Below, one piece after another: positions 4,343 through 30,216 of a DNA stretch of 48,984 bases. How positions within the stretch are numbered: the first letter of the stretch is position 1; each line of letters starts with the position of its first letter. Where the stretch lies: positions 1 to 48,984 of the forward strand of contig CAZJBH010000001.1 of NCBI GenBank assembly GCA_964544485.1, given 5' to 3'. The notes under the pieces are model-generated. The model did no database searches. It saw only the letters and a program-made list of their open reading frames with translations, and was not told the origin of the DNA. The DNA comes from an uncultured Candidatus Saccharibacteria bacterium. GTDB taxonomy: Bacteria; Patescibacteriota; Minisyncoccia; Portnoybacterales; UBA2143. The translations under genes and the position numbers were made by a program.

Positions 4343-4371
4343 AGCAGGGACTTAATTGTCCCTGCTGTTTT
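4343..4371. terminator. Bidirectional rho-independent-type hairpin between convergent rsmA and lipoprotein genes
   Basis: agcagggac (4343-4351) / gtccctgct (4358-4366) form a perfect 9-bp stem with a 6-nt loop. An A-run precedes it and gtttt follows it. Confidence 0.7.
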
Positions 4372-4376
4372 GGTTG

Positions 4377-4919
4377 TTATTCAAGCTCTCGATATCTGCG
4401 GATATGCCAGATATCCTGAGATGTCCCTTGCCGATCCCAATCAGGAATCCGGAAATCTTCTTCCGCGGTTCCAACTAACCGCCCATCCTGATTAATCAGA
4501 TTGGCAGTTAGATAGATCCGGTAAGAGTCTTTCATCCGCGGGAACTCTATATCCGTTTGGCCACCCGGCCACAAACGGATATAAGTGTGGGCGTCAGTAT
4601 AAACCTTACATACCCACTGTGTTCCATTGAGTACCCGGATGTAGTGTTTTCGAGCTAATGGGAAAAATCCACGGGGCCGATAAGGCGAAGGCGAAGGACG
4701 GCAGGCAGCGCTTTTTGCCCTTGGAGCGTTGCGAACTTCTACATTGTCCGCAACACTTCCGATTCCAGCGCCGATAGCAGCGCCAGCTAAAGCGCCATTA
4801 CCTCCGCCAATTGCGCCTCCGATTCCGGCGCCGAGCAGGCTGCCTGAAATTGTCCAGCATCCGGATAGAAGTGGTAATAATCCCATAACCACTGCAAGTA
4901 TCAGAATTCTCTTTTTCAT
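4377..4919 (-). CDS. Lipoprotein with glycine-zipper segment (17-kDa-antigen/SlyB-like) and an unknown C-terminal domain
   Basis: Lipobox LLPLLSGC, then GSLLGAGIGGAIGGGNGALAGAAIGAGIGS. Nucleotide composition is strongly atypical for the window (about 49% G+C by hand count of 4381-4500). Confidence 0.7.
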   Translation of the reverse strand: MKKRILILAVVMGLLPLLSGCWTISGSLLGAGIGGAIGGGNGALAGAAIGAGIGSVADNVEVRNAPRAKSAACRPSPSPYRPRGFFPLARKHYIRVLNGTQWVCKVYTDAHTYIRLWPGGQTDIEFPRMKDSYRIYLTANLINQDGRLVGTAEEDFRIPDWDRQGTSQDIWHIRRYRELE

Positions 4920-5072
4920 CTTTTTCCTCCCTTCAGAATTTTCTAGTTATATTTTTATTTAAAGTTACTATTTTATATTTGATATAATTATACACTTTTG
5001 CACATATTTTGTCAATAGTTTTAACAGTTTAGATTAGGTTAAAACTTGTGGATAACTTAAGAATATTTCAAT

Positions 5073-5101
5073 TAGAATAAAACTTGGAAGTATTGTATAA
5101 T
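5073..5101 (+). promoter_or_regulatory. Candidate sigma70-type promoter of the T4SS-like operon
   Basis: Perfect TATAAT at 5096-5101, preceded by TG, 27 nt before the ATG at 5129. Only a weak -35 (ttagaa) lies 17 nt upstream. Confidence 0.3.
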
Positions 5102-5128: not shown

Positions 5129-6085
5129 ATGAAAATAAGCTTATTAAACAAAAAGAAAAATCTTATAGCAATAATTTTATTATTAATTGCTGGATTTATT
5201 GTTGGCGGATATTTAGTTTTGGAAAGCCGGTCTAGCAAGGCTTTAAGTATGAAAGAATTAACTGAAAATCTTGCTCAGAATAATTTTATTAATGATAAAG
5301 ATTATGATGGTTTAGAAGATTGGGAAGAAGAAATTTATAAGACTGATCCAAATAATCCGGATACTGACGGAGACGGATATTTAGATGGAGAAGAAGTTGC
5401 CGCTGGATATGATCCAAATATTCCTGCGCCAAATGATAAAATGCCGGAGAATAGATTTGAAGGTGATCGTCCTAACCCGGGAAATTTAACTGAAATGTTT
5501 TATTATTTAATGGTTGATAAATTTAAAAAGAATGAATTTGATCTTTCTAGCATTGATACATTAAGTGCGGCTGAAGAAATAAATATTGATCAAAGAACTC
5601 AAGAATCCTTAAAAAAGGCGACTGCCGGATTTATGGCTAATTTTGTACCTCCTTTTCAGAAAGAGAATCATGTTTTTGAAACTATTAAGCAGAATAATTC
5701 GATAACAACAGAAAAGTATAAAAATGATTTTGTTAAAGTTATGGCTAAAGTTACTAGTTGTAATAATGGAATAATTAGTCAGGATGGTTTAAAAAATATT
5801 GAACAAGGTTCTAAGATAGAAAACGTAGAACAATTAATTAAAATGAGTGAGTGCTATTTTAAAAATCAACAAGACTTATTAGAAATTAATCCTCCTTTAA
5901 ATTGGCTTGATATTCATAAGCAATTATTATTTATACTTTGGCAAACAGCTCAAGTAGCCAAGCGCTTACCTGAGGTGCAAAACGATCCCTTGAAAGGGGT
6001 TATTGTAATAAGCCAATTTAAGCAAGTTTTAGAAAATTTACCTGAAATTCAAAAACAAGTAAAGCTTGAATTAAATAAAAAATAA
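5129..6085 (+). CDS. Membrane-anchored protein with thrombospondin-type-3-like acidic Ca-binding repeats
   Basis: N-terminal TM IAIILLLIAGFIVGGYLVL. DxDxDG-type repeats DKDYDGLEDWEE / DPNNPDTDGDGYLDGEE. First gene of the operon. Confidence 0.55.
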   Translation: MKISLLNKKKNLIAIILLLIAGFIVGGYLVLESRSSKALSMKELTENLAQNNFINDKDYDGLEDWEEEIYKTDPNNPDTDGDGYLDGEEVAAGYDPNIPAPNDKMPENRFEGDRPNPGNLTEMFYYLMVDKFKKNEFDLSSIDTLSAAEEINIDQRTQESLKKATAGFMANFVPPFQKENHVFETIKQNNSITTEKYKNDFVKVMAKVTSCNNGIISQDGLKNIEQGSKIENVEQLIKMSECYFKNQQDLLEINPPLNWLDIHKQLLFILWQTAQVAKRLPEVQNDPLKGVIVISQFKQVLENLPEIQKQVKLELNKK

Positions 6086-7813
6086 ATGTTTTATCCTAAA
6101 AGCATTAGTTTATTATTAGTAATTTGTCTAATTGGTTCTTTGATGGGCGGAATTTTAATAGCGCCTAAAAAAGCACAAGCAGAAGTATTATTAGTAGAGA
6201 TAATAGGAGATGTTGGAGATTATCTATTTGATATTTTTAATTTGATAGAAAACACATTTACAGCAGCAGTTCAGGCATGGGACAAAGCGATGAAGCTGGC
6301 TACATGGTATTTAGGTGAAGCAATGTATGCTTTAGTAGAGGGGTTGTTAACACAATTAACTAACGATATGGTGGAATGGTTAAATAATGGCGGAGAAGGT
6401 TTGCCTAGGTTTTTAGCAATGGATTTTGATGATTGGATATGGGATACAGCTAATAAAGCAAGCGGAATATTTATAGAACAATATTTGGGGGCAGGTTGGT
6501 TGTGTGATTCTTTTTACGACCAATTAAATGATATGTTTAAGCTTAAATTAGAAGTTCCTCGTTTTGAAAAAATTGATTATGATGTGGATTGTACGATTGA
6601 AGATGTTTTAGATAACGCGGAAAGTTCTTTGGAAAAGTTTGAGCAGGATTTTTCTGAAGGAGATTGGGATGCCTGGGTTGAGTTTACTGAAAAAGAAAAT
6701 AATTTCTTTGGTGCCTATATGGAAAGCGTGATGGCTGAAACAGGTATGAGAAATGAGGCGGAAGAAACTCAAAATAAGGAATTAGCTATGAATGATGGTT
6801 ATCAAAATCATAAAAATTGTACTTGGTATGACGCTAGCACAACTACTCCTCGGACGATTGTTGAAGAGCAGAAAGATATTATTGGAATTCCTCCGATTCC
6901 CGAAGCTTGTAATCGAGATCCAAATAATCCAGGAATGACTGTCGGAGGATATAAAATGCCTTGTTATTATGAATGCGAGATTTTGACTCCTGGCTCTACG
7001 GTTAAGGATATGTCTAGCAAGACAGTTACTAATTATTGGGATCAGCTTAATAATCAACTGAATGCTCTTTTGGAAAAGGCTGGTCCGTTTGCGGTGTTTA
7101 TTAGAAGTATAGCAGAGAGTTTACTTAATTCGTTTTTTGAAGAAGATGGCGGAGGGTTAAAACATGCTAGTTCAATTCCTGGTAGTGGATCGATAACTCC
7201 AAATCCATATACAGAAGGCGCTGAATTAATAGCTATTTTAGAAGGAATAATTCCTTATTTGGAAAAAATAATACCAGAGGCTCAAAAGAATGCTAATGAA
7301 TACCAGAAAATTAAGAATTATTACAATAATTATACTCTTCCTGCATTACAAAAAATTATTGATGATTGTATGAATAATTCCGATGAATCAAAATGGGCTC
7401 AAGATAAATTAGACGAAATTAATCAAGAGATTTTACCAGAAATTCAGAAAAAAATAGATCGACCTAAAAATTTAGCAATAGCTAAAAAGAATTTAGAATT
7501 GGCTATAAGTGATTTAAAAATATGGCTTGATGATCCACAAGATGATGAAATTAAAGAAAAGATAATTCAACGCGCTAAAAGAGCAATGGAAATTATTAAT
7601 GATCAATCAACCGCTTCTAGTTTTAGTGAATTAATTTCAGAAAGTGAAACAGCTAAAGAGAATTTAAAAACTTTAATGAAAACCATCATTGGCGAAAGAG
7701 ATAATTCTTTTCCTACTTCCGGGAGTATTCCCGCTGAAATGGAATTAGCTAAGGATATCAAAGATGATGCAGATGATAAGTTAGATAGTTGTACTGAAGA
7801 AGAGGTTTTCTAA
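6086..7813 (+). CDS. Secreted protein of unknown function (T4SS-like operon)
   Basis: Signal peptide ending AQA-E. 575 aa with scattered Cys. The start directly abuts the upstream stop. Confidence 0.55.
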   Translation: MFYPKSISLLLVICLIGSLMGGILIAPKKAQAEVLLVEIIGDVGDYLFDIFNLIENTFTAAVQAWDKAMKLATWYLGEAMYALVEGLLTQLTNDMVEWLNNGGEGLPRFLAMDFDDWIWDTANKASGIFIEQYLGAGWLCDSFYDQLNDMFKLKLEVPRFEKIDYDVDCTIEDVLDNAESSLEKFEQDFSEGDWDAWVEFTEKENNFFGAYMESVMAETGMRNEAEETQNKELAMNDGYQNHKNCTWYDASTTTPRTIVEEQKDIIGIPPIPEACNRDPNNPGMTVGGYKMPCYYECEILTPGSTVKDMSSKTVTNYWDQLNNQLNALLEKAGPFAVFIRSIAESLLNSFFEEDGGGLKHASSIPGSGSITPNPYTEGAELIAILEGIIPYLEKIIPEAQKNANEYQKIKNYYNNYTLPALQKIIDDCMNNSDESKWAQDKLDEINQEILPEIQKKIDRPKNLAIAKKNLELAISDLKIWLDDPQDDEIKEKIIQRAKRAMEIINDQSTASSFSELISESETAKENLKTLMKTIIGERDNSFPTSGSIPAEMELAKDIKDDADDKLDSCTEEEVF

Positions 7814-7818
7814 TTAAT

Positions 7819-8016
7819 ATGAAATTAAAAGATATTTTAATTTTAATTTTTGTTCTAACTGGAGCAATTGCTATTTTTCTTTATTCTTCGGAAAATAAGC
7901 AGATACAAATAGTTAATCAGGAGGCAAAACAAGGCTATGTTTTACAAACTCGGCCAGAAATTTTGTTTCGCGATAAAGTTGAATTAAAAGCTAGAGTAAT
8001 TGATTCAATTAAATAA
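7819..8016 (+). CDS. Small single-pass membrane protein
   Basis: 65 aa with TM ILILIFVLTGAIAIFLY. The stop overlaps the start of the next gene. Confidence 0.45.
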   Translation: MKLKDILILIFVLTGAIAIFLYSSENKQIQIVNQEAKQGYVLQTRPEILFRDKVELKARVIDSIK

Positions 8017-10385
8017 TGATTTGTTTTTTTAAAAAATATCAAAAAAATATTTTCCAATTTAGCCTGATTTTTTTAATCAGTAGTTTAGGTATTTTTATTT
8101 TAGCGAATAATGTTCAAGCAGGGATTTTGGGCGAAATAGGAGACGGAGTCAAGAATGGCATTTTATATTTAATCGGTGAATTTTTAGGGATATGTATACA
8201 ATTTTTAGGGATTGTAGTTGCTTGGATTGTTGGTTTGTTAAAAGGAGTTATGGAATTTGGCAATCCACAAAATGCTAGCCTGGTAAAGGATGGCTGGACC
8301 ATAGTTAGAGATATGACAAATATGTTGTTTATCCTGATTTTATTGATTATTGCTTTTGCTACGATTTTGCGAAAAGAAAACTATGGCATGAAAGCGCTTT
8401 TGCCAAAATTAATCGGAATTGCTTTATTAATTAATTTTAGTTTAGTCATCGCTGGGGCAATAATAGATTTTGCTGATGCGATTACCCAAACTTTTTTATA
8501 TAAAGATGAAGCTACTGGAGAAGTAAAATTATTCCAAGAAGATTTACCTCGTGCTCTTATGATACCTGCTTATATTGATAATACTGGCAAGATAGATGAT
8601 CTTGATAAAAGAAAGGCAAGGTGGATGTGTCAAATAGAAGAAGATGGAATATATGAAATTGCCATGACGCAAGAAGCTTGTGAATCAATGTTGGATGGTA
8701 AATGCAGCGGTCATTGTTTTAAAACAATATTAGAAACCGAAGAAGCGCAAGTGCTTAATGAAGAAATGAGTGATCCGGATTATAATATGAACATGATTTT
8801 GGGGATGCTGCTTTCTATCCTATTTATGATCATTGCTATTTTTGTCTTAGCAGCTTTATTCTTTATGCTGATTTTCCGGGTTTTAACATTATGGTTTTTA
8901 TTAATTTTAATGCCAATCGCTTTGCTTTTATGGGTTTTGCCGGCAACTGCAAGCATGTTTAGTAGATGGATACATACTTTTTTCAGATGGACTTTTTTTG
9001 CTCCAATTGTTACTTTTTTTATCTGGTTAAGCGTAACTTCTTGGATCAAATTTTTAGAAGGTAGCGCAGGCGCTCCTGGAGGAGAAATTTCAGTAGGAAT
9101 GTCCGGAATAGCTAAACATAAAATGTTAGCTAAACAAGTAGTTCCGCAGGTTTTTTTGCCGGAGAATTTATTCCAATTTATTTTAGTTTGCGGCATGTTG
9201 ATTGGTTCATTGGTAGTTGCTCAGAAAATGTCTATCCATGGAGCTAGTGGAGCAATAAGCTTAGGTAAGAAATGGGGGGTTGGAGCAGCTAAAAAAACAG
9301 GCGGGGCTGTGGGCGGATATACAAAGAGAAAAGCGCAAAGAATGACAGCTAAACCAGCCGGAGTGGTTGGCCGTGGGTTTGACCGGGCAAGCGCTTGGAC
9401 GCGTAAATCTAAATTAGGAAAGTATAGCGGATTAAGCAAGGGTTTAGGCAAGTACGGCGCTGGATTAAGCAAACATTATGAAGGAGAAAGAAATAGGATT
9501 AATGAAGAAAAGAAAAAATATGAAAATATGTCTCCGGATCATTTGAAATCGCTTTACAAAACCGTAACTGATCGCAGGAGCAAAATAGCGATTGGCCAGG
9601 CTTTAGCTGAAAAAGGCAAGCTTAAAGCAGATGAGTCGCGTGGATTCACAGAAACAGATATTAAAAATCTTGCTAAATATTCCCAGACTTATGGCATGGA
9701 AAAGAATATTCTTAAGACGCGCCCTGAATTAGCGCTTGAAATGCCTAAACAAGATTTAGATAAAGTCATTTCTAGTTTAAAGCCGGAAGATATGAAAAAT
9801 TTAGATAATACTTCAATTAAAAATTCGTCACAGGTTCAAGAAAGTGTTTCAAAGCAATTTCAAGAAGGCGGAAACTTTACCAGCAAACATTTGTCTGAGT
9901 TGTATAATAATAATTATGAAGTTTATAATACAATTGAAAATGAAGTGCTTAATAATAATTATGAGTCTTTGCGTAATGATATCAAGCAATTTTTAGATAA
10001 GCAAAAAGAGTCAAGTAAAGAGGCTCCTGTTAGGACTAGAGGGTCAACCAAAGAAGCGATCAGAGATTATTTGCGTAGTGAGGCGCCTAAAGATGTTAAC
10101 GCGCTTAGCGAGATGATGGGTACACTTCAGCCTGAGGATGTAGCTGAATTATCGCAGGGATTTTCTAGCGGATATGCGCCTAATGAAGTGGCAGAATCAA
10201 TGGCTAAACAATTTGAAGAAGGCAAGGGGTGGAGAGCTGATCATTTAAACGCTTTAAAACAAAGCAATCCGGATCTTTATAGCAAGGTAGAAGACACTTT
10301 AAATCAGAATCGGGTTAACATTTCTAAAGATGTAAGAGATTATATGGCTAGCAATCCGGAAAGAGTTATCTTAGAAACTAAATAA
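8016..10385 (+). CDS. Polytopic membrane protein, VirB6/TrbL-like, with a long hydrophilic C-terminal extension
   Basis: Signal-like N-terminus (NNVQA-G), many hydrophobic spans between about aa 45 and 420, and a Gly/Lys-rich linker. The roughly 300-aa C-terminal region contains an internal duplication. The gene lies two genes upstream of PrgI-like/VirB4, in the same operon. Confidence 0.45.
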   Translation: MICFFKKYQKNIFQFSLIFLISSLGIFILANNVQAGILGEIGDGVKNGILYLIGEFLGICIQFLGIVVAWIVGLLKGVMEFGNPQNASLVKDGWTIVRDMTNMLFILILLIIAFATILRKENYGMKALLPKLIGIALLINFSLVIAGAIIDFADAITQTFLYKDEATGEVKLFQEDLPRALMIPAYIDNTGKIDDLDKRKARWMCQIEEDGIYEIAMTQEACESMLDGKCSGHCFKTILETEEAQVLNEEMSDPDYNMNMILGMLLSILFMIIAIFVLAALFFMLIFRVLTLWFLLILMPIALLLWVLPATASMFSRWIHTFFRWTFFAPIVTFFIWLSVTSWIKFLEGSAGAPGGEISVGMSGIAKHKMLAKQVVPQVFLPENLFQFILVCGMLIGSLVVAQKMSIHGASGAISLGKKWGVGAAKKTGGAVGGYTKRKAQRMTAKPAGVVGRGFDRASAWTRKSKLGKYSGLSKGLGKYGAGLSKHYEGERNRINEEKKKYENMSPDHLKSLYKTVTDRRSKIAIGQALAEKGKLKADESRGFTETDIKNLAKYSQTYGMEKNILKTRPELALEMPKQDLDKVISSLKPEDMKNLDNTSIKNSSQVQESVSKQFQEGGNFTSKHLSELYNNNYEVYNTIENEVLNNNYESLRNDIKQFLDKQKESSKEAPVRTRGSTKEAIRDYLRSEAPKDVNALSEMMGTLQPEDVAELSQGFSSGYAPNEVAESMAKQFEEGKGWRADHLNALKQSNPDLYSKVEDTLNQNRVNISKDVRDYMASNPERVILETK

Positions 10386-10391
10386 TAAATT

Positions 10392-10841
10392 ATGAGCCAA
10401 GCAATACTTAAAAATATTTCTAATCCAAGAGTAAGAGAGAAATATCAGAAATATTTTCAACTTCCAAAATCTATTAGAAGTCAGTTTTTTAATTCTCAAA
10501 CAGCTGCAAAAATTCGCCAAGCAGGAAAAAAGAACAATTTAAACTTGTCTCAAATTTCAGAAGCAGCTTATTTAACCGGAGGGATTTTATTAGGTGAGTT
10601 TAGAATAACTGAATTTGTTGAAAGATTAATGCAAGATTGCCAATTAAATCAGCAAGAAGCCCGCCAATTAGCGCGCGATATCAATCAAGTTATTTTTTTG
10701 CCAGTTAAAGATGATCTCAAAAGATTGCATCAAATTAATTATTGGCCGAGAGAAAATGAAGTTTCTGCTTCTATTCAAAAAGAAGAATATAAATTTCCGC
10801 GATTAAATGGGAATTTAGTTAATTTAAGAAAAAAAGAATAA
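10392..10841 (+). CDS. Soluble hypothetical protein (T4SS-like operon)
   Basis: 149-aa ORF in tight operon spacing. No motif recognised. Confidence 0.45.
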   Translation: MSQAILKNISNPRVREKYQKYFQLPKSIRSQFFNSQTAAKIRQAGKKNNLNLSQISEAAYLTGGILLGEFRITEFVERLMQDCQLNQQEARQLARDINQVIFLPVKDDLKRLHQINYWPRENEVSASIQKEEYKFPRLNGNLVNLRKKE

Positions 10842-10856
10842 TTTTAAAAATTTAAA

Positions 10857-11138
10857 ATGCAGGCTAAAGTACCACAATTTATTGATATCAAAGATAAGAT
10901 TGTTGGACCGCTTACTTTAAAGCAGTTTCTTTATTTTTTAGCCGGCGGAATTTTCTTATTCGTTCTTTGGTTTGTTTTAAAATTAGCCGCTTTTATTCTG
11001 GTTGCTATTCCGATTATTGTTATTTGCCTGGCTTTGGCTTTTTACCATCCGCAAGGGCAGCCATTGATAACTACGATTAAAAATATGTTTTATTTTTTCA
11101 TTCGGCCAAAATTATATACTTGGAAAAAAGATAAATAA
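10857..11138 (+). CDS. PrgI-family / VirB3-like small membrane protein
   Basis: 93 aa. N-terminus VPQFIDIKDKIVGPLTLKQFLYFLAGG is followed by two TM helices, which is the PrgI (Gram-positive VirB3 analogue) pattern. It sits upstream of VirB4. Confidence 0.6.
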   Translation: MQAKVPQFIDIKDKIVGPLTLKQFLYFLAGGIFLFVLWFVLKLAAFILVAIPIIVICLALAFYHPQGQPLITTIKNMFYFFIRPKLYTWKKDK

Positions 11139-11143
11139 ATATT

Positions 11144-11815
11144 ATGGCAAAAAAGATTAATTCAGCTTCAATACAAAAGCATTTGCCGCTTAAAGAAATT
11201 AAAGATGGAGTAGTTGTGCTAAAGAATAATTCATTGCGGGCGATTTTAATGGCGAGCAGTTTTAACTTTGCTTTAAAATCAAAAGAAGAACAAGACGCGA
11301 TTATTTATCGGTATCAGGATTTTTTAAATTCAATTGACTTTCCTCTTCAGCTGCTAGTTGGTTCAAGAAAATTTGATATTAGCAATTATTTGGATGTATT
11401 AAGGCAGAAACAAATGCAGCAAGAGAATGATTTACTTAAGATTCAGACAACCGAATATATTGAATTTGTTAAAAGCTTGACTGAAGTAACAAATATTATG
11501 ACTGAATCTTTTTATATTGTCATCCCTTATAGCGGAGGGGTTCAACAAAAAAAGGGTATTTTAAGCAATTTATTTAGCAGTTTTTCAGGAAACTCAAATA
11601 ATAAGGAAGATGAGACAAAAGAAATGAATTTTGCTAAAAGAAAGAATAATCTTTGGCAAAGAGTAGATTTTGTTTCTACTGGATTGCAGGCATTAGGGGT
11701 AAAAACCGCTCCTTTGAATAGCGAAGAATTAATCGAACTATTTTACAAGCTTTATAATCCAAGCGCTAAAGAGGAGCTGGAATTAAAAAAAGCTAAAACA
11801 TTAAGAAATCAATAA
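11144..11815 (+). CDS. Hypothetical protein, possibly a detached VirB4 N-terminal-like domain
   Basis: LPLKEIKDGVVVLKNNSLRAILMASSFNFALKS...DFPLQLLVGSRKFD parallels the pattern at the N-terminus of the next ORF (LKVNTKHVQLGEKYLRTLFVFDFP...MNVSIFVHPIE). Confidence 0.35.
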   Translation: MAKKINSASIQKHLPLKEIKDGVVVLKNNSLRAILMASSFNFALKSKEEQDAIIYRYQDFLNSIDFPLQLLVGSRKFDISNYLDVLRQKQMQQENDLLKIQTTEYIEFVKSLTEVTNIMTESFYIVIPYSGGVQQKKGILSNLFSSFSGNSNNKEDETKEMNFAKRKNNLWQRVDFVSTGLQALGVKTAPLNSEELIELFYKLYNPSAKEELELKKAKTLRNQ

Positions 11816-11820
11816 AGATT

Positions 11821-13656
11821 ATGGGTTTATTTGGCAAATCTAAAAAAGAATCGAAAAAAGAAAAGCAGCCGGAAGAAAATTTAATGAATTTAATTGCTCC
11901 GGCTGGGTTAAAGGTTAATACCAAGCATGTCCAATTAGGAGAAAAATATCTTCGGACTTTGTTTGTTTTTGATTTTCCTAATAATTTAGTGACTGGATGG
12001 CTGGGTCCGATTATTACTCTTGATCAAGAGATGAATGTTTCTATTTTTGTTCATCCAATAGAAACTAAAGATATATTAAAAAAGCTGCGCAAGCGAACTG
12101 CTCAGGTGCAATCGCAAATATCAATGGAAATGGAAAAAGGAAAAGTTCGCGAGCCAAAGCTGGAAGCAGCTTTAGAAAGCATAGAAGACGCGCGGGATAA
12201 GCTTCAGACCGGAGAAGAGCGTTTATTTAAATTTGGCCTTTATATCACTCTTTTTGGCGATAATACAAAAGATTTAGATAATGCGGAAAACAAAGTAAGG
12301 GCGCTTTTGGAAACTCAGATGGTTTATGCTAAGCCGGCAGTTTTTCAGCAAGAACAGGGTTTTGATTCTACGCTTCCTTTGAATTTGGATAAACTAGCAA
12401 TTCATAATACTTTTAATACTCCTTCTTTAGCTTCAGCTTTTCCTTTTGTCTCTTCTGATCTAACTGACAACAAAGGAATTCTTTACGGGATTAATAAGCA
12501 TAATAGCTCTTTGATTTTATTTGATCGGTTTGATATGGAAAACGCAAATATGGTTATTTTCGCTAAATCAGGAGCTGGTAAAAGCTATTTTACTAAATTG
12601 GAAATTCTTCGTTCTTTGATGCAGGACACAGAAGTAATCATTATTGATCCGGAAAACGAATATCAATATTTAGCAGAAACAGTAGATGGAACTTTTATTG
12701 ATATTTCTTTGACTTCAAATAATCATATTAATCCTTTTGATTTGCCTAAGCCGGGCAAGAATGAGAATAAAGGCGATGTGCTTAAGGGAAATATTATTAA
12801 TCTGGTCGGGTTGATTAGAATGATGCTAGGCGGGTTAAGTCCGGAAGAAGATGCTTTGATTGACCGCGCTTTAACAGAAACTTATGCTTCGCGGGATATT
12901 ACAGCTGATTCTGATTTTGGAAATGCTGAGCCTCCTTTAATGCAGGATTTGCAGTCAATCCTTAAAGGAATGACCGGAGGAGAGAATTTAGTCACTCGTT
13001 TGGAAAAATATGTTACCGGAACTTATGCTAGTTTTTTTAATCAGCCAACGAATGTGGTTTTAGGCAAAAAATTAGTCATTTTTAGTATTCGGGATATGGA
13101 AGATGAATTGCGTCCTTTGGCAATGTATATCATTTTAAGATATATTTGGAATATTATTCGTTCTGAAACTAAAAGGCGCTTGATGATTGTGGATGAAGCT
13201 TGGTGGATGATGCAGCATGAAGACGCAGCTTCATTTATGTTTGGGATTGCTAAGCGTTGCCGTAAATATTATTTGGGATTAACAACAATTACTCAGGATG
13301 TAACTGATTTTATGCGTTCTAAGTACGGAGGCCCGATTGTAACTAATTCTTCTTTGCAGCTTTTATTCAAACAATCACCGGCAGCAATTGATATTGTTCA
13401 GAAAACCTTTAATCTAACCGAAAGAGAGAAATATATGCTCTTGCAATGCGCAGTTGGAGAAGGAATTATTTTTGCCGGCAACAAGCATGTTGCTATTCAG
13501 GTAGTTGCTTCATATACAGAAGATCAGGTAATCACTTCTGATCCGGCTCAATTAATGGAAATTGAAAAAGCTAAACAGGAATTAGCTGATCAGGAAAATG
13601 AAAGCTCTGAACAAGATAAAAAAGAAGCAGGTAATCAAGAAGAAAATATTTATTAA
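11821..13656 (+). CDS. virB4: VirB4/TrsE/PrgJ-family type IV secretion ATPase
   Basis: Walker A FAKSGAGKSY, Walker B LMIVDEAWWM, LTTITQDVTDF, and a VirB4-style N-terminal domain (YLRTLFVFDFPNNLVTGWL). Confidence 0.8.
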   Translation: MGLFGKSKKESKKEKQPEENLMNLIAPAGLKVNTKHVQLGEKYLRTLFVFDFPNNLVTGWLGPIITLDQEMNVSIFVHPIETKDILKKLRKRTAQVQSQISMEMEKGKVREPKLEAALESIEDARDKLQTGEERLFKFGLYITLFGDNTKDLDNAENKVRALLETQMVYAKPAVFQQEQGFDSTLPLNLDKLAIHNTFNTPSLASAFPFVSSDLTDNKGILYGINKHNSSLILFDRFDMENANMVIFAKSGAGKSYFTKLEILRSLMQDTEVIIIDPENEYQYLAETVDGTFIDISLTSNNHINPFDLPKPGKNENKGDVLKGNIINLVGLIRMMLGGLSPEEDALIDRALTETYASRDITADSDFGNAEPPLMQDLQSILKGMTGGENLVTRLEKYVTGTYASFFNQPTNVVLGKKLVIFSIRDMEDELRPLAMYIILRYIWNIIRSETKRRLMIVDEAWWMMQHEDAASFMFGIAKRCRKYYLGLTTITQDVTDFMRSKYGGPIVTNSSLQLLFKQSPAAIDIVQKTFNLTEREKYMLLQCAVGEGIIFAGNKHVAIQVVASYTEDQVITSDPAQLMEIEKAKQELADQENESSEQDKKEAGNQEENIY

Positions 13657-13658
13657 TT

Positions 13659-14138
13659 ATGAATCAAGAAGAAGAAAATCGTTTGATCAAATTGAATTTG
13701 CTTAGAAATGTGATCAGAAGAAAGCGTATTCCCAGAGAAGTTTTAGAAAAGATGAAAAAGGCTATTCAAATAAAAGAATCATCTCTTTGGCCGTTTGCCT
13801 TTATGGTTGGAATATTCAATGATCTGGTTGATTTAACAATAATCGGGACTATTCCAATCTTGGGGGATACCCTAGATTTAGCTACTAGCGCTATCTTGGT
13901 CCCTTTTATGTTTAGCCTTGGCGGCAAAATTAGAATTAAATTAACTCTTTTAGGGCTTGTTATAAGCGGGTTGGAATTTGTTCCTTTCCCATTAACAGAA
14001 ATGCTTAGCTTATGGACAGTTGCCCTTATATACGGGTATTACAAGGCGCAACAACGAGCTGAATTAGCTCAAAGAGGATTAGAAAAATATCAGCAAGGTA
14101 AAATTGATCGAGAAGCTTTAGCGGAATTTAATCAATAA
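13659..14138 (+). CDS. Small membrane protein (DUF4112-like IPxxGDxxD motif)
   Basis: Three or four hydrophobic spans. GTIPILGDTLDLATS motif. Confidence 0.4.
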   Translation: MNQEEENRLIKLNLLRNVIRRKRIPREVLEKMKKAIQIKESSLWPFAFMVGIFNDLVDLTIIGTIPILGDTLDLATSAILVPFMFSLGGKIRIKLTLLGLVISGLEFVPFPLTEMLSLWTVALIYGYYKAQQRAELAQRGLEKYQQGKIDREALAEFNQ

Positions 14139-14159
14139 TAAAAAATATATTTAATCTTT

Positions 14160-15284
14160 ATGCAGATAAATATTGCTTCTCTTAAAAAAACATTAATTAT
14201 TTTATCAGCCGGACTTTTATTAGTTTTAACTCTTTTTGCGGGCTACAACTTTATTTTCAATCGCGCAGAAAAGAATGAAAATGGGAATGAAGAGCCTTTG
14301 ATAACTTCTCCGCGTCCGGAAATAAAAGCAATTTCTGAAAGATTTCCTTTAGGTGTAATTATTGACGGGAGCAAAGTTAAATACTATAGCCAGAGTGATG
14401 GCCGGGTTTATCAATCTGACTTAAATGGCAGTAATTTAAACAGGATTTCAGAAACCGTGATTGCTGGATTGGTTGAGGTTCTTTGGTCTGCGGACAAAGA
14501 TGAAGTAATCACTATTTTTAAAGAAGATGGTATTTTTGAAAAATATTATTATAATTACAAAACTAATCAAGCAAAAAAATTAGACTATAATTTGCGCTGG
14601 ATAGACTGGGCTCCGCAAGCTGATAAAATCGCTTATCATTATTACAATCCGCATAATCAAGCGAATAATATTTCAATTGCTGATCCAGATGGATCTAATT
14701 GGGAGAATATACTTGATTTAAGAATGAATGATTTAATTGTTGAATGGATAAGCGATCAAATGCTTGGAATTAGAAATAAGCCTAGTAGCGCAAAAATGAG
14801 CGCTGTTTATACGCTTAATATTAGGAATAAGGAATTTACAAAAGTGATTAATAGTTCTTACGGGCTTTCTGCCTTATGGTCTCCTAAAGGAGATAAATTA
14901 ATTTTTTCAGAAACTGATAGCCAGGGGCAAAAAGCGCGTTTGAAATTTGCTGATTTAGGAGATGGTTCTATTCAGCAGCTTAATTTTTTTACTTTGCCTG
15001 AAAAATGCGTTTGGAGCCAAGATAACCGGACTTTATTCTGTGCAGTGCCAAAGATAATTCCGGAAACAGCTAAATTACCTGATGATTATGAGAATAATCA
15101 GGTAACTTTTAAAGATAATTTTTGGAAAATTAATTTAGATACTCAGGAAGTAACTGAAATTTATCAGATTCAGGAAGAAGATATTCAATTTTACGACGCT
15201 GAATCTTTGTATTTGCCGATAATGGAAGATTATTTGCTTTTTGTTAATAAAAAAGACGGTTTGCTTTATAGCCTAGACCTATAA
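14160..15284 (+). CDS. Membrane-anchored TolB-like (PD40/WD40-like) beta-propeller protein
   Basis: N-terminal TM. Repeated 'W(S/A)P.(G/A)DK(I/L)' blades (WSADKDEV, WAPQADKIAY, WSPKGDKLIF, WSQDNRTLF). Confidence 0.55.
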   Translation: MQINIASLKKTLIILSAGLLLVLTLFAGYNFIFNRAEKNENGNEEPLITSPRPEIKAISERFPLGVIIDGSKVKYYSQSDGRVYQSDLNGSNLNRISETVIAGLVEVLWSADKDEVITIFKEDGIFEKYYYNYKTNQAKKLDYNLRWIDWAPQADKIAYHYYNPHNQANNISIADPDGSNWENILDLRMNDLIVEWISDQMLGIRNKPSSAKMSAVYTLNIRNKEFTKVINSSYGLSALWSPKGDKLIFSETDSQGQKARLKFADLGDGSIQQLNFFTLPEKCVWSQDNRTLFCAVPKIIPETAKLPDDYENNQVTFKDNFWKINLDTQEVTEIYQIQEEDIQFYDAESLYLPIMEDYLLFVNKKDGLLYSLDL

Positions 15285-16446
15285 TCAGCCAGAAAAGAAT
15301 TGCTAAATCAGCTTTCCAAAAAGGAGTGTCTAGCAGTCCATGAATTAAAATTACTAGCATAGTCGCAAAAATTATTAAACTCGGTTTTTTATTAAAACCC
15401 GGTTTTTTTTGTCTAAAAAAGCTTATTATCAGCCAAATAAAGCCGACTAATCCGATTAATCCGCTTTGCAGCCAGAAAGCTAGCCAGAGATTATGCGGCT
15501 GGGGAACTGCCCATTCTGGATAAGGCGGGAAATATTTTTGATAATTTAAATAATATTCTTGGAATAATCCTGGGCCGATACCAAGAAAAGAATAATCTTT
15601 AGTTATTTCCCAGGCTGATTTCCAAATAACTAGGCGAGATTCAAGGGAAGGATAAGAAAAATCAAGTATTTTTTGGAATTTATCGGTTGGCATTTGAGCT
15701 CCTAAGCCAAAGATAAGCAAAGCCAGAATAAAGAAAATAAATTTTCTATTAATATTAAAAATTAACAAAAAGAAAGTTGTTCCTAATAAAGCCAGCCAAG
15801 CGCTATAGGATTGAGTTAAATAAATGATAAATATTATTAAAAAATAGCTAACAATTAAGATTAAGCGATTAATTTTTTTATTAGTTTTTATAAACAAATA
15901 AAATGAAAGGATTAACAAGGGAGCTAAATACATAGCTAAGTAATTCGGTGAAAGATAAAAAGCAGCTAGCCGATTATCATAGGTTAAATAATTGTTAAGC
16001 CAGTAAAATAAGGCGATTAAGCTAGTTATAATTCCGGAAATCCACAAGCAGATAAAAATTAATTTGAATTGTTTTTTAGTTTTAATCTGATTAAGAAAGA
16101 TTAAAAGAAAGATTAGCGGAGCAATAAACCAGGCTTTTAAAATTCCGGCGCCAGTTTTAATCTGAATTGAGAATAAAAGGCTGATTAAAACTCCGAGCAG
16201 GATTAATAAGCTTGGCAGCCAGAGTTTTTGATATTTTTTTAAAACAGAATGTAATTCAGAAATAAGATTTTTTGATATAAGATTTTTAATTAACCAAAGA
16301 ATTAAAAGAAAATAAATTAACGCTTCAATTAAATTAAAAGGAATCCAACTGATTTTAAAATGAAATAAAGCTAAAGGAATGCAAAAACAAACAAGATAAA
16401 TACCAAAATTTATTCCTAAATCAATTTTTTTAATTATTGTTTTCAT
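15244..16446 (-). CDS. O-antigen-ligase/Wzy_C-family polytopic membrane protein
   Basis: At least 10 TM spans. Wzy_C-like motif PQPHNLWLAFWLQSGLIGL. Confidence 0.65.
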   Translation of the reverse strand: MKTIIKKIDLGINFGIYLVCFCIPLALFHFKISWIPFNLIEALIYFLLILWLIKNLISKNLISELHSVLKKYQKLWLPSLLILLGVLISLLFSIQIKTGAGILKAWFIAPLIFLLIFLNQIKTKKQFKLIFICLWISGIITSLIALFYWLNNYLTYDNRLAAFYLSPNYLAMYLAPLLILSFYLFIKTNKKINRLILIVSYFLIIFIIYLTQSYSAWLALLGTTFFLLIFNINRKFIFFILALLIFGLGAQMPTDKFQKILDFSYPSLESRLVIWKSAWEITKDYSFLGIGPGLFQEYYLNYQKYFPPYPEWAVPQPHNLWLAFWLQSGLIGLVGFIWLIISFFRQKKPGFNKKPSLIIFATMLVILIHGLLDTPFWKADLAILFWLIIGLGYKANRLFY

Positions 16447-17731
16447 GATGATAAATAAATTGGCTTAGTCCCATTAAAATCATTAATAAGCTTAAAACAA
16501 TTGGTTGGTAAATGCCTGTTTCAAATAGGCTGTGCGCGGAGAAATAGGCAAGCGACCCGATTAAACTGATTAGAATAGCTTTTTGCTTGAATAAAATTGT
16601 TTTTTTAAGGGACTTAAAAAGCTGCCAAAAGGTTGTAAAAATTAGTCCTAGCCATAATAATAAGCCAATTAATCCAATTTCTGAGAAAAGATCTAAATAA
16701 AAATTATGTGCAGTAGCTGGATTGCGGTAATCTTTCTGATTAAGGGCTAAGGAATAATTTCCCAGGCCAATTCCTTGCCAAAAATGATTCATTCCTATTT
16801 TTTCAGCTTGTTGCCACATTTCTAGCCGTCCCATATTTGAGCCTTCGGTTAAATCAAAGCTAGAATAAAAACGATCTGCAACAGGAGAAATTGGAAGTAT
16901 GAATAAACAAAGGCTAATTAAAATAAAACAAGGGACAACTTTTTTATTTAAATCTCGATAGATTAGCCAGCTAATTAAAATAAGCGCAATGATTAAGCCT
17001 AAATAAGCTCCTCGAGTAAAAGAAAGCATTATCCCGAGCATAAAAATAGAATAGTAAATCGCAATCAGTAATTTATTTTTGTAAATTAATAATCCAATTG
17101 CGCTAAAAGGGATGATTAAGCCAAGGCAAAAAGAAAACATATGCGGATCAGATAACAAGGAAAAAGCTCGCATTAAGGTTTGTCCATTAAGATTAACTAG
17201 CCAGCTTGGATAATTTAAAATCATATTGCCTAAGTTAAATCCGGAAAAAATTGGCAAAATATTAATTGCCCAGAATTGATAAATTTTTTCTAATCCAAAA
17301 ATAAATTGGGCTAAGAATTGAAGTAATCCGATAATTCCTAAAAAACTAAAGCCAAAAAGCAAATATTTGATTAATTTAATAATCTGTCCCCAGTTTTCAA
17401 TTAGGCTTAGCAAAATTAAGTAAAGCGGGAAAATAGAGATAAAATAGATAATTTTTTTGATCCCCCAAACAAGATTGATTGAATTAATTAGTGAGAATAA
17501 GCTCCAGCAGAGAAACAAGCATAAGAATAAGCTTTGATGATTAATAAATTTTTTTAAAATTATTCTTTTTTGCGAATAGAGCCGGATAAAAATTATTAAG
17601 CAAAATAAAGGAATCAAAACCCTGATTGAGGCTAAATCATATTTATTATTTAAATTAAGGGCAATTTGAAATGGCAAATAAATAATTAGCAATAATAGCC
17701 AGAAATATAATTTTTGCTTAATTGATTTCAT
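16430..17731 (-). CDS. O-antigen-ligase/Wzy_C-family polytopic membrane protein (paralogue)
   Basis: Polytopic. Motif TAHNFYLDLFSEIGLIGLLLWL. Confidence 0.65.
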   Translation of the reverse strand: MKSIKQKLYFWLLLLIIYLPFQIALNLNNKYDLASIRVLIPLFCLIIFIRLYSQKRIILKKFINHQSLFLCLFLCWSLFSLINSINLVWGIKKIIYFISIFPLYLILLSLIENWGQIIKLIKYLLFGFSFLGIIGLLQFLAQFIFGLEKIYQFWAINILPIFSGFNLGNMILNYPSWLVNLNGQTLMRAFSLLSDPHMFSFCLGLIIPFSAIGLLIYKNKLLIAIYYSIFMLGIMLSFTRGAYLGLIIALILISWLIYRDLNKKVVPCFILISLCLFILPISPVADRFYSSFDLTEGSNMGRLEMWQQAEKIGMNHFWQGIGLGNYSLALNQKDYRNPATAHNFYLDLFSEIGLIGLLLWLGLIFTTFWQLFKSLKKTILFKQKAILISLIGSLAYFSAHSLFETGIYQPIVLSLLMILMGLSQFIYHHENNN

Positions 17732-19137
17732 TTTTTAAGCAAGCTAAAGATTTGTTGCGGCGAAAAGGCTTTAAGCAGATATAAGCAGGCGAAATAAGCG
17801 AAGACAGCCAGGGGAGCTGTCCAATAAACAGAATTATTTCTTAGAATAAAAAATATTCCAGCCATAATCAAACCTCCAATTAGATATTTAATTAATAATT
17901 TGAAGCTAGGCAATTCTTTCATGATTCGGTAAAGAGTGATTAGCATTAAGCAGGTTACTATTAGTTCGGTAAATAAAGTTGTTCCAGCTGCGCCGTAATA
18001 GGAGTATTTTGGAATAAAAATATAATTGGCAATTAAATTAATTAAAGCGCCAATTCCATAAATATAAAGCAGGGTTTTTTGCTTGGCCAAAGAAATAATC
18101 TGGTTGGAAAAAAGCACTCCTAAAAAGATTATTCCAGTAGCAATAATTAAAAGATTAAGCACTCCGGCTGAAGCAATGAATTCTTGTCCGCCGATTAAAA
18201 CAACTAAGCAATCAGATAAAAAATAAGTTCCGATAATTAGCGGAATAATAAATAAAAGAAGCAAATTCAGCGTTTGTTGGACTGTTTTTTTAAATTTATT
18301 TCTATCTGAAAAAGCGTATTTAGACATTAATGGCATAATTAATCCGACAAACATAGCTGGAAAAAATAATAAGCTTTCTAAAAACTTATAAGCCAAATTA
18401 TAAATTCCAACATGGCTGGCTGGCTGCATTAAAGAAAGCATGATTGTGTCTAACCGAAAATAGATTACTGTAAAAATAGAAGCAATTGCTAGAGGCGCGG
18501 ATTCTTTTAATATTTCTTTCCAATAGCTAATATCAAATTGGAATTTAATCGGAATATATTTTTGGCTAAAAATAAAAGCTAAGCAGAAATTAATTAATGC
18601 TCCGCCAATTAGAGCGCTAAGAATCAATAAAAATCCTAAATCTAGATAAATAAAAAGCACAACCAATCCTAACTGAACAATTCTGGCAAGCACTTCGCTT
18701 AAGGCAATTTTATCCATTCGGAGATATTTTTGGAAAACTCCCATTAAAACTTGTTGATTTGAGTTAAGCCAAAAAGCTAGCGCAGCAATTGCGGTTCCTA
18801 ATTTAACTTCTCCGGGATAAGGAAGAAAATATATAATTATTGGAGCTAAGCTGAAAATAAATAAGCCAAAAAAGAATCTTAAGGTAAAAGCATTATTAGC
18901 GATTTTAATTTCATTGGCTTGAGGTCGAGAAATTTCCCTAACGCAGATAGAATAAAGTCCCAGATCAGCTAAAACAGTGAAGAAATATAAAAAGGCCAAG
19001 ATAGTGGCATAATAACCAAATCCTTCTTGGCCCAAATAACGGGTGATAAATCCAATTGTAATCAAAGAAAGGGCTAGTCCTAAAATTCTAGCCCCGGCCG
19101 AAGCAATTGTATTGTAAGCAATTTGCCTAACTAGCAT
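17728..19137 (-). CDS. MOP-superfamily oligosaccharide/lipid-linked flippase (Wzx/MurJ-like)
   Basis: 469 aa, about 12-14 TM. The N-terminus NTIASAGARILGLALSLITIGFITRYLG is typical of polysaccharide biosynthesis flippases. Confidence 0.7.
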   Translation of the reverse strand: MLVRQIAYNTIASAGARILGLALSLITIGFITRYLGQEGFGYYATILAFLYFFTVLADLGLYSICVREISRPQANEIKIANNAFTLRFFFGLFIFSLAPIIIYFLPYPGEVKLGTAIAALAFWLNSNQQVLMGVFQKYLRMDKIALSEVLARIVQLGLVVLFIYLDLGFLLILSALIGGALINFCLAFIFSQKYIPIKFQFDISYWKEILKESAPLAIASIFTVIYFRLDTIMLSLMQPASHVGIYNLAYKFLESLLFFPAMFVGLIMPLMSKYAFSDRNKFKKTVQQTLNLLLLFIIPLIIGTYFLSDCLVVLIGGQEFIASAGVLNLLIIATGIIFLGVLFSNQIISLAKQKTLLYIYGIGALINLIANYIFIPKYSYYGAAGTTLFTELIVTCLMLITLYRIMKELPSFKLLIKYLIGGLIMAGIFFILRNNSVYWTAPLAVFAYFACLYLLKAFSPQQIFSLLKK

Positions 19138-26520: not shown

Positions 26521-27735
26521 ATGAATCAACAAGAATTAATTCAACAAGCTTTAACTCGGGGAGTAGAAAATGTTTATCCTGATTGTAAAAGTTTAGAAAA
26601 GCGTTTGCTTTCCGGTAAAAAAATGCGTTTGTATTGCGGATTTGATCCAACCGGACCGTCCTTACATATTGGTCATGCGATTCAGATTCGTAAATTAGCC
26701 CATTTTCAGAAATTAGGACATCAGGTAATTTTTTTAATTGGAGATTTTACCGGCATGATTGGAGATCCAACTGACAAAGCAGAAGCGCGCAAGAAATTAA
26801 CCAGACAAGAAGTTTTAAAAAATTCTGCGAATTATCAGGAGCAAGCCAGCAAGCTTTTGTCTTTTGATGGGAAAAATCCAGCTAAGGTGATGTATAATAG
26901 CGAGTGGAACGATAAGCTTAGCTTTGTTGATTTAATTGAATTGGCTTCTAATTTTACAGTTGGACAAATGATTGTTCGGGATATGTTTCAGGAAAGGATA
27001 AAAAACAAAAAGCCAGTTTATTTACATGAATTTTTTTATCCTTTAGCTCAGGCTTATGATAGCGTAGCGATGAATGTGAATTTAGAAGTAGGAGGGAATG
27101 ATCAGACCTTTAATATGTTATGCGGTCGAGATTTGATTAAAGCGGTTAAAAACAAAGAGAAATTTGTTTTAACAACCAAATTATTATCAGACGCATCAGG
27201 GATGAAAATGGGCAAAACAATTGGCAATATGATTAGTTTAGACGAAGAGCCAAGTGAAATATTTGGCCAAATTATGGCTTGGCCGGATGAATTAATTATT
27301 CCTGGGTTAGAACTTTGCACTGATTTGCCGATTAAAGAAATTGAACAAATAGAAAAAGATATTAAAATAGATAAAATGAATCCGCGCGATGCTAAGGCAA
27401 GATTAGCTAGAGAGGTAGTATTAATTCATCATGGAGAAAAACAAGCTCAACAAGCAGAGCAAGAATTTAACCGGATTTTTAAAGAAAAAGACAAACCGAG
27501 CCAAATTCCTGAATTTAAAATAGATAAAAAGAAATACAATATTTTAAATTTGTTAGTTGAGACTAAATTAACTAATAGCAAAGGCGAAGCCAGAAGATTA
27601 ATTCAACAAGGGGGTGTTAAAATAGATAATAAAAAAATCTCTGATACTGAAACAGAGATTGAGTTAAAAGATAAAATGGTGATTCAAGCCGGTAAAAGAA
27701 AGTTTATTCAGGTAAAAATAGATAATCAAGAATAA
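26521..27735 (+). CDS. tyrS: Tyrosine--tRNA ligase
   Basis: HIGH (LHIGHAI), KMSKS variant KMGKT, and a C-terminal S4 domain (GEARRLIQQGGVKIDN). Confidence 0.95.
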   Translation: MNQQELIQQALTRGVENVYPDCKSLEKRLLSGKKMRLYCGFDPTGPSLHIGHAIQIRKLAHFQKLGHQVIFLIGDFTGMIGDPTDKAEARKKLTRQEVLKNSANYQEQASKLLSFDGKNPAKVMYNSEWNDKLSFVDLIELASNFTVGQMIVRDMFQERIKNKKPVYLHEFFYPLAQAYDSVAMNVNLEVGGNDQTFNMLCGRDLIKAVKNKEKFVLTTKLLSDASGMKMGKTIGNMISLDEEPSEIFGQIMAWPDELIIPGLELCTDLPIKEIEQIEKDIKIDKMNPRDAKARLAREVVLIHHGEKQAQQAEQEFNRIFKEKDKPSQIPEFKIDKKKYNILNLLVETKLTNSKGEARRLIQQGGVKIDNKKISDTETEIELKDKMVIQAGKRKFIQVKIDNQE

Positions 27736-28723: not shown

Positions 28724-28724
28724 T

Positions 28725-30215: not shown

Positions 30216-30216
30216 G

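Follow-up and report, generated by a model that had tools for sequence, protein, structure and literature searches.

A pilin-less type IV secretion gene cluster, probably chromosomal and vertically inherited, with a candidate DnaA operator in a Patescibacteria bacterium

The window analysed here is a stretch of 48,984 nt (49 kb) from an uncultured bacterium (contig CAZJBH010000001.1), and its positions 5129-15284 carry a gene cluster resembling a type IV secretion system (T4SS). Ten plus-strand open reading frames (ORFs) follow one another with gaps, in order, of 0, 5, -1, 6, 15, 5, 5, 2 and 21 nt; their lengths and positions match exactly those of an earlier annotation made from the DNA letters alone (the sequence-only reading), as does the range of gaps (-1 to 21 nt). 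This is a real, well-delimited operon, and in GC content (0.30-0.37) it resembles the rest of the window, as had also been described. The comparison set consisted of 82 related loci, comprising 80 genome loci and two closer contigs, L081 and L082, found by exact protein look-up; components were counted by profile iteration over the ORFs of these loci, and bit scores were compared with the curated cut-offs of Pfam and NCBIfam. The order PrgI-TrsD-VirB4 was kept in 74-80 of the 82 loci, so the cluster is not a chance arrangement. A hydrophobicity scan placed one membrane or signal segment at the N-terminus of each of ORF1, ORF2, ORF3 and ORF10; it counted at least six segments in ORF4, two in ORF6 and two to three in ORF9, and marked ORF5, ORF7 and ORF8 as soluble.

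Table 1. Features of the operon and of the region upstream of its first gene
Feature	Position	Strand	Details
Perfect DnaA box	5047-5055	-	TTATCCACA on the minus strand, reads TGTGGATAA on the plus strand; 9/9
Putative -10 hexamer TATAAT, preceded by TG	5096-5101 (TG from 5094)	+	27 nt upstream of the ATG
ORF1, TSP3 calcium-binding repeat protein, membrane-anchored	5129-6085	+	318 aa; first gene of the operon
ORF2, secreted or anchored protein	6086-7813	+	575 aa; Cys-rich N-terminal domain and C-terminal helical bundle
ORF3, single-pass membrane protein	7819-8016	+	65 aa; hydrophobicity scan
ORF4, extended VirB6/TrbL-like polytopic membrane protein	8016-10385	+	789 aa; PF04610
ORF5, soluble helical-domain protein	10392-10841	+	149 aa; large uncurated Patescibacteria family
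ORF6, PrgI/VirB3-like protein	10857-11138	+	93 aa; PF12666
ORF7, TrsD-like protein, homologue of the VirB4 N-terminal part	11144-11815	+	223 aa
ORF8, VirB4 ATPase	11821-13656	+	611 aa; GAGKS and DEAW; NF045971
ORF9 (= X1), small membrane protein after virB4	13659-14138	+	159 aa
ORF10, membrane-anchored TolB/PD40-like β-propeller	14160-15284	+	374 aa; last gene of the operon

The VirB4 ATPase, ORF8, contains both the Walker A (GAGKS) and the Walker B (DEAW) motif and scored 374.7 bits on NF045971, which represents VirB4-like ATPases of the CD1110 family (cut-off 325). Lower scores were obtained on the TraC-F (190 bits), VirB4_CagE (131 bits) and TrbE (25 bits) models. The sequence-only reading had set a VirB4 identity against membership of the FtsK/HerA group, and no such grouping was found, HerA/DUF87 scoring 34.6 bits and CedB 40.5 bits (cut-off 700); CedB and CedD (20.8 bits) were both far under their cut-offs. 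The nearest solved structure was the C-terminal domain of Thermoanaerobacter VirB4 (4ag5, E 5.8e-41). The protein encoded directly upstream, ORF7, had been listed without a family, but it proved to be TrsD-like and to match the N-terminal positions of VirB4 models. It covered positions 11-159 of the 752 in NF045971 and 100-240 of the 894 in NF045975 (E 1.4e-10), whilst ORF8 covered 181-734 of the former and 281-893 of the latter; the two proteins therefore together tile one full-length VirB4. ORF7 also matched the TrsD model NF041427 (E 7.3e-5), and its orthologues carry the precomputed Pfam assignment PF26593 (TraC-like). A TrsD homologue was found directly before virB4 in 80 of the 82 loci.

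The PrgI/VirB3-like and VirB6-like partners named by the sequence-only reading were, like VirB4, above their curated cut-offs. ORF6 scored 44.1 bits on PF12666 (PrgI; cut-off 27) and was present in 74 of the 82 loci; ORF4 scored 30.3 bits on PF04610 (TrbL/VirB6; cut-off 25.9), matched NF046089 (E 1.8e-8) and was present in 45. The C-terminal region of ORF4, about 390 aa, is hydrophilic, hence the designation ‘extended VirB6’. Searches of ORF4 and ORF7 against PDB sequences gave no useful match, and Pfam and NCBIfam scans revealed neither a hydrolase (VirB1/PrgK/TrsG) nor a VirB8 (PrgL/TraM) domain among the ten products. Insertions were seen in this part of the cluster in some relatives. In a related groundwater contig (L083), VirB4 (9783-13559) is 1258 aa long and contains an intein with a LAGLIDADG homing endonuclease, and a PDDEXK_3 gene lies between PrgI and TrsD. 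In several lineages a small gene of the ‘23S rRNA intervening sequence protein’ (bAvd) family separates the ORF5-family gene from PrgI, as in L083 (7765-8124), L084 (2120-2476) and L085 (7145-7501).

Four of the remaining products (ORF2, ORF3, ORF5 and ORF9) lack a recognisable family, so that part of the sequence-only reading stood, but its count of six did not. ORF1, described there as a calcium-repeat membrane protein, indeed matched TSP3_bac (PF18884) with 40.1 bits (cut-off 25) and has an N-terminal transmembrane segment; its orthologues form the first cluster gene after rsmA in many lineages, and a search of PDB sequences was of no use for it, weak matches to TolB and to biofilm-surface-protein repeats being all that ORF1, ORF4, ORF7 and ORF10 yielded between them. 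ORF2 has conserved cysteines. Its AlphaFold2 model, with an overall predicted local distance difference test (pLDDT) score of 56.7, is poor for residues 1-372 and confident for residues 374-574, which are predicted to form a C-terminal helical bundle; Foldseek against the PDB returned generic helical bundles (best E 0.011), and profile and single-sequence searches of the PDB were without match. Word-indexed homologue searches yielded five relatives of ORF2. The N-terminal domain is fused to a GDSL lipase in one relative, and one distant relative showed a weak DUF4141 match. A VirB5/TrbJ-like tip protein was considered for ORF2, but TrwJ/VirB5 (7o3v_J) ranked only 41st (E 0.36); an ORF2 orthologue (P0122) starts with GIPVYDAAN, which we take to resemble VirB5 N-termini, and the assignment was not adopted. 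Orthologues of ORF3 were detected in L081 and L082, with a weak N-terminal match in L004.

An exhaustive HMMER search extended the ORF5 family to 1590 representative clusters, in which the domain is mostly N-terminal in longer proteins. The family occurs in 58 of the 82 loci, placed between the gene in the VirB6 position and PrgI, and takes the same place in L083 and L085; it was absent from L081 and L082, the two closest relatives. Nothing was found for ORF5 in Pfam or NCBIfam. It is predicted by AlphaFold2 to consist of eight helices (pLDDT 90.8), and despite this confident model neither Foldseek nor a profile search gave a match in the PDB. The single, weak VirB8 match of ORF5 spans 26 residues (E 0.009) and was discarded as noise; the model is all-helical, unlike VirB8. 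The ORF9 family stands directly after virB4 in 16 of the 82 loci and has weak similarity to DUF4112. The TolB-like propeller seen in ORF10 by the sequence-only reading was recovered as a weak match (TIGR02800, E 1.2e-7, far under the cut-off; TolB structure 7mx5, E 0.0036). About 18 of the 82 loci have a propeller of 320 aa or more downstream of virB4; shorter hits were not counted, because the iterated profile drifted via the N-terminal transmembrane segment to unrelated 205-aa proteins. The 3' end of ORF10 overlaps a convergent Wzy_C gene by 41 nt. This is one of two paralogous Wzy_C (O-antigen ligase/polymerase-like) genes which, with a flippase gene, occupy positions 15244-19137 of the minus strand and are syntenic in all close relatives. 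Wzy_C domains occur also in pilin O-glycosylases.

Homologues of VirB4 numbered more than 8000 at E <= 1e-20. The best 120 were 64-84 % identical to ORF8 and, where a source was given, came from Patescibacteria or unnamed bacteria. Across the 82 patescibacterial loci the identity was 54-84 % (84 % for L081 and 81 % for L082), and the closest named organism among the 80 fetched genome loci was Candidatus Portnoybacteria, of the Parcubacteria group. The best plasmid-borne VirB4s, from Bacillota and Actinomycetota, were 29-35 % identical; the grouping with patescibacterial copies is a statement about these identity figures, not about a tree. The gene order in relatives is rsmA - TSP3 - ORF2 - VirB6 - ORF5 - PrgI - TrsD - VirB4 - X1 - propeller - Wzy - flippase - yidC - rnpA - dnaA, so the synteny comparison proposed in the sequence-only reading has found the flanking core-gene order shared with related genomes. 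Look-ups with distant ORF5 proteins and a metagenome scan with the ORF1 alignment indicated that the order rsmA - TSP3 - large secreted protein - VirB6-position gene - ORF5 family - PrgI - TrsD - VirB4 is widespread. Compared with L081, identities were 84 % for VirB4, 83 % for DnaA, 81 % for YidC, 76 % for PrgI and 74 % for TrsD; for the other products they were 68 % (ORF10 propeller), 57 % (ORF9), 54 % (ORF2), 52 % (ORF3), 50 % (VirB6) and 49 % (ORF1). The ranking was unchanged in L002, L003 and L007 (VirB4 71-73 %, DnaA 71 %), and profile iteration detected ORF1, ORF2 and ORF3 in none but the nearest relatives. The motor thus evolves like a housekeeping gene within a fixed core-gene synteny, and the envelope-exposed and channel parts evolve fast. 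Core-gene synteny together with a VirB4 diverging at the rate of DnaA points to a vertically inherited chromosomal system, not to a fragment of an integrative and conjugative element (ICE).

The flanks are core genes, as the sequence-only reading had stated. To the left lie uvrD/pcrA and rsmA/ksgA, the latter ending 0.8 kb upstream of the cluster, and then a terminator-like hairpin (4343-4366; bidirectional) and a divergently oriented lipoprotein gene; to the right lie the two Wzy_C genes, the flippase gene, yidC, rnpA, dnaA and dnaN, the last three 5-8 kb downstream (rnpA was named via its orthologue in a relative). The lipoprotein gene (4377-4919, minus strand) encodes a Gly-rich product, has a local GC content of 41 % and is poorly conserved. 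Upstream of uvrD, positions 146-1624 of the plus strand encode a 492-aa Cys-rich membrane-anchored protein without a family. No relaxase, type IV coupling protein (T4CP) or integrase was found among the window ORFs scanned against Pfam, and no tRNA gene was found in the 49 kb. The scan covered all ORFs of at least 300 aa, with those at 46272-47354 and 47371-48297 read by eye. The lack of these three mobility functions reported by the sequence-only reading therefore holds for the scanned ORFs of the whole window, and none of the three is adjacent to the cluster within it.

That reading had also called the cluster origin-proximal. The arrangement rpmH-rnpA-yidC / dnaA-dnaN is the classical origin neighbourhood, and in gene content (rnpA, dnaA, dnaN) the description stands. 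It does not stand on the structural signs of an origin: no cluster of DnaA boxes was found anywhere in the window, and none at dnaA, nor does the GC skew invert at dnaA, the strand-independent skew being about +0.13 on both sides once the coding-strand bias was separated. ‘Origin-proximal’ is thus a statement about gene content. Box-like 9-mers with at most one mismatch are frequent in the window (24, against 11.4 +/- 3.5 in shuffled sequence; none of 100 shuffles reached 24) and unclustered.

The only perfect DnaA box of the window lies 40 nt upstream of the -10 hexamer of the operon, within the 209-nt region upstream of ORF1 and between a minus-strand promoter (TTGACA-17-TATAAT) and the plus-strand TG-TATAAT. 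The overall promoter and terminator scan was at chance level, and it was used for the rsmA terminator and the strong minus-strand promoter only. TTGTATAAT recurs in the three relatives whose aligned stretch extends there (L002 has TTATATAAT). The box is conserved in six of seven related loci. A perfect box was found in the same place in L002, L003, L004, L005, L007 and, in the opposite orientation, L085; the contig of L081 stops 140 nt upstream. When the upstream regions were aligned, neither the box nor the minus-strand promoter's -35 block varied and the plus-strand elements recurred, whereas the spacers were not conserved.

The metagenome scan with the ORF1 alignment added 80 further loci (L087-L166; 733 kb). 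Within these, 31 of 48 perfect boxes fell into the 17.8 kb of windows upstream of ORF1, a 73-fold enrichment (binomial p = 2e-38), and several of the remaining ones lay just upstream of uvrD, the head of the same co-directional block. A perfect box was present in 16 of the 38 metagenome loci that had a full-length ORF1 orthologue and at least 120 nt upstream of it. The spacing between box and TATAAT was 38-41 nt in the TGTGGATAA orientation in most of the diverged loci counted. The DnaA encoded in the window has the canonical DNA-binding signature GGRDHTTV, and the region upstream of dnaA holds zero to two imperfect boxes only. On this pattern the box would be an operator for DnaA, which we infer from its sequence, position and conservation. 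A literature search yielded no paper that ties a DnaA box to Patescibacteria or their T4SS, and a conserved DnaA-binding site in the promoter was not found in the papers searched.

The segment between virB4 and the propeller differs between lineages. In the sister loci L001-L007 it holds X1, X2 (a secreted protein of about 245 aa) and X3 (about 150 aa), the last corresponding to the Pfam family T4SS_pilin (PF18895), with 33.0 bits in L012 (cut-off 26.6) and 23.2 bits in L001. In more distant outgroups, too, X1 is followed by a pilin. The window, L081 and L082 have kept only X1 (ORF9) of the three, and no homologue of X2 or of X3, the VirB2-like pilin, was found anywhere in the 49-kb window. 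Response regulators at 45497-46306 came up as pilin candidates through a weak tblastn match and were rejected. Loss or relocation of the pilin in the clade of the window, L081 and L082 is the most parsimonious explanation, and since the cluster has no VirB2-like pilin, any pilus subunit is encoded elsewhere or absent. No report of such a pilin-less cluster was found in the papers searched.

A chromosomal, non-conjugative T4SS near dnaA has already been published, and the window is a further member of it. In a survey of 3,035 assemblies (Quinonero-Coronel, 2025; PMC12102498), 2,407 carried a VirB4 of a monophyletic Patescibacteria clade nested in MPF-FATA, with TrsD, PrgI/VirB3 and VirB6 near virB4 and with a neighbourhood rich in dnaA, dnaN, rnpA, ksgA and rpmH. 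VirB2-like pilins were frequent, lying near virB4 in 1,135 of the 1,948 pilin-bearing assemblies. These authors found transfer between classes to be rare in their phylogeny, and read the system as co-opted for a non-conjugative role, with a possible gene-dosage benefit of its position. Transposon sequencing (Tn-seq) of Southlakia epibionticum showed its T4SS genes to be essential in co-culture (Wang, 2023; PMC10633639), which a 2025 review repeats whilst speculating about an uptake conduit (PMC12857230); a 2026 preprint links possible T4SS tubes to feeding on host RNA. With the system of this clade (S. epibionticum SEML1_0006-0019 and the surveyed genomes) the window shares the clade-type VirB4, the adjacent TrsD, PrgI/VirB3 and VirB6, the location beside ksgA, rnpA, dnaA and dnaN, and the lack of a relaxase or an adjacent T4CP. 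Its cluster differs in having neither a VirB2-like pilin gene nor a VirB1-like hydrolase. It also starts with the TSP3 gene and ends with the propeller gene, neither of which is mentioned in the main text of the survey or in part of its supplement (PMC12102498); Wzy is not mentioned there either.

Among conjugative MPF-FATA systems (pGO1 TrsC/TrsD/TrsE, pCF10 PrgH/PrgI/PrgJ and Clostridioides CD1110) the CD1110-type VirB4 and the PrgI and VirB6-like partners are shared, the arrangement of TrsD and a short VirB4 is that of pGO1, and outer-membrane components occur in neither. Unlike those systems, it lacks a relaxase and a T4CP in the window and a peptidoglycan hydrolase and a recognisable VirB8-like protein in the cluster, which does not sit on a mobile element. 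The closest version outside Patescibacteria was found on an 898-kb replicon of Pontibacillus sp. ALD_SL1 (L086, NZ_CP062975.1, 351-361 kb), beside flagellar genes. It comprises two pilin-like genes and VirB6-like, PrgI-like, TrsD-like (E 4.6e-32) and short VirB4 (35 % identity, E 2.5e-118) genes, and the replicon was typed as non-mobilizable. The Pontibacillus cluster differs from that of the window by the pilin genes, a 1050-aa peptidoglycan endopeptidase, its genomic context and the lack of TSP3, ORF2, ORF5 and propeller genes; as Pontibacillus is monoderm and has TrsD and VirB4 split, a split VirB4 is not unique to Patescibacteria. The archaeal Ced and Helicobacter ComB systems likewise combine a VirB4-type ATPase with the lack of a relaxase, so that by analogy inward transport would be conceivable for the system of the window, but no CedA-like or ComB-specific partners are present there and the CedB and CedD scores are those given above.

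Other large ORFs of the window include those for PBP1, TyrRS, ATP-grasp enzymes, a ComEA-like protein, RuvB, a tandem PilB ATPase and a histidine kinase. The tandem ATPase (38125-41130, minus strand; 1001 aa) consists of MshEN followed by two complete GspE/PilB-type (T2SSE) units, a fused double pilus/secretion ATPase. A ComEA-like helix-hairpin-helix DNA-binding module is joined to PKD and lamin-tail domains at 33299-34642 (minus strand), which looks like an extracellular DNA-binding protein. At 27704-32218 (minus strand), three ATP-grasp enzymes, one of them fused to a Zn-protease-like domain, are followed by a 7TM_transglut membrane protein.

Taken together, the region probably encodes a chromosomal, vertically inherited T4SS of a Parcubacteria/Paceibacteria-like Patescibacteria bacterium, belonging to the Patescibacteria VirB4 clade related to monoderm MPF-FATA systems. 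The chromosomal, non-conjugative derivative proposed by the sequence-only reading is upheld by the core-gene synteny, by the divergence of VirB4 in step with DnaA and by the lack of mobility genes in the 49 kb, and equals the published view. Given the vertical inheritance and the lack of a relaxase, a T4CP and mobile-element features, conjugation is an unlikely function. In T4SSs in general, hexameric VirB4 is docked onto VirB3 and VirB6 at the cytoplasmic membrane, where it powers both the assembly of the machine and the passage of substrates. The sequence shows a motor of two polypeptides, the TrsD-like N-terminal part and the VirB4 ATPase, together with a membrane platform of PrgI, the extended VirB6-like protein, ORF9 and ORF3. 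ORF5 may be a cytoplasmic accessory protein, and ORF1 (TSP3), ORF2 (Cys-rich domain and helical bundle) and ORF10 (propeller) may constitute an external, fast-evolving module for host contact. Such a machine would be a single-membrane translocon in which VirB4, by hydrolysing ATP, drives macromolecules through the VirB6/VirB3 channel where the cell touches its host, and it would serve the epibiotic lifestyle, by export of effectors or uptake of host material, instead of conjugation. Transcription would start about 20 nt upstream of ORF1, and the conserved box hints that DnaA, the initiator of replication, regulates the promoter. We tentatively propose, at somewhat less than even confidence, that the T4SS operon is a direct DnaA target which couples its expression to replication-initiation (nucleotide and energy) status, and that it represents a pilin-less variant of the cluster with a widespread soluble component, the ORF5 family, whose predicted fold matches no solved structure.

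Several points weigh against this interpretation. Relaxases were almost absent from the surveyed genomes, but most of them had VirD4/T4CP homologues, usually far from virB4 (PMC12102498), and in the genome analysed here a T4CP, a relaxase, a cell-wall hydrolase or a pilin could be encoded outside the 49 kb. The machine may be incomplete as read, VirB8-like and VirB1-like components not having been found in the cluster, and the absence of ORF5 from L081 and L082 means that the gene content of the operon is not wholly fixed. The DnaA box stands alone and could instead belong to the origin. Finally, the sequence does not decide between export of effectors and import of host material.

The last point bears on a rather doubtful alternative, that the machine imports host nucleic acid or other macromolecules, like ComB and Ced, instead of exporting effectors. 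Import would suit organisms such as Patescibacteria without nucleotide biosynthesis, for which T4SS-like tubes have been tied to the acquisition of host RNA (2026 preprint) and an uptake conduit has been suggested (PMC12857230); the cluster shows no evident effector-like gene, and DnaA-linked control would fit a nucleotide supply coupled to replication. However, CedB is matched only marginally, at 40.5 bits where the cut-off is 700; loss of comEC in S. epibionticum abolished competence but not viability, so that the essential role is not ComEC-dependent uptake of DNA; and the direction of transport is not readable from the genes.

As to the box, its being a part of the replication origin and not a transcriptional operator is unlikely. 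It is the only perfect box of the window, with two imperfect ones upstream of dnaA, it lies at a divergent strand switch, and the GC skew lacks an inversion at dnaA, all of which would suit an origin at this position. Against this, the boxes do not cluster, only one being present (or two, in a few loci), no clear skew inversion occurs at 5 kb either, and a distance of 38-41 nt to the -10 hexamer, kept in one orientation among diverged lineages, is what operators typically show.

Still less likely is that the cluster mainly builds an attachment structure such as a pilus or adhesin, with nothing passing into or out of the host. Of the ten products, three (TSP3 protein, helical bundle and propeller) are envelope-exposed and fast-evolving, VirB2-like pilins occur in the clusters of sister lineages, and pilin arrays are essential in S. 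epibionticum, yet neither the cluster nor the rest of the window has a pilin gene whilst the VirB4/VirB3/VirB6 translocon is highly conserved, and attachment in Patescibacteria has been attributed to type IV pili. A decayed or partial ICE or an origin-proximal integrated plasmid, with its relaxase, T4CP and integrase outside the window or recently lost, would account for a VirB4 of the CD1110 family, defined by NCBI on conjugative elements, and for plasmid-borne closest relatives outside Patescibacteria, but is very improbable given the same flanking core-gene order at 70-83 % DnaA identity with VirB4 in step, the lack of an integrase, a tRNA or a compositional shift in the window, a VirB4 at most 35 % identical to any plasmid copy against 54-84 % to the 82 patescibacterial ones, and the rarity of between-class transfer (PMC12102498).

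Few machines have been demonstrated to be indispensable to the epibiotic life of Patescibacteria, which make up a large share of bacterial diversity, and the T4SS is one of them. If true, the DnaA operator would provide a concrete regulatory link, where gene dosage close to the origin is all that the literature has offered so far. A naturally occurring variant whose cluster lacks a pilin is relevant to the question of whether the VirB2-like pilus is an integral part of the machine, and ORF5, the membrane protein after virB4, the TSP3 protein encoded by the first gene and the propeller are parts to consider when the complex is purified or imaged.

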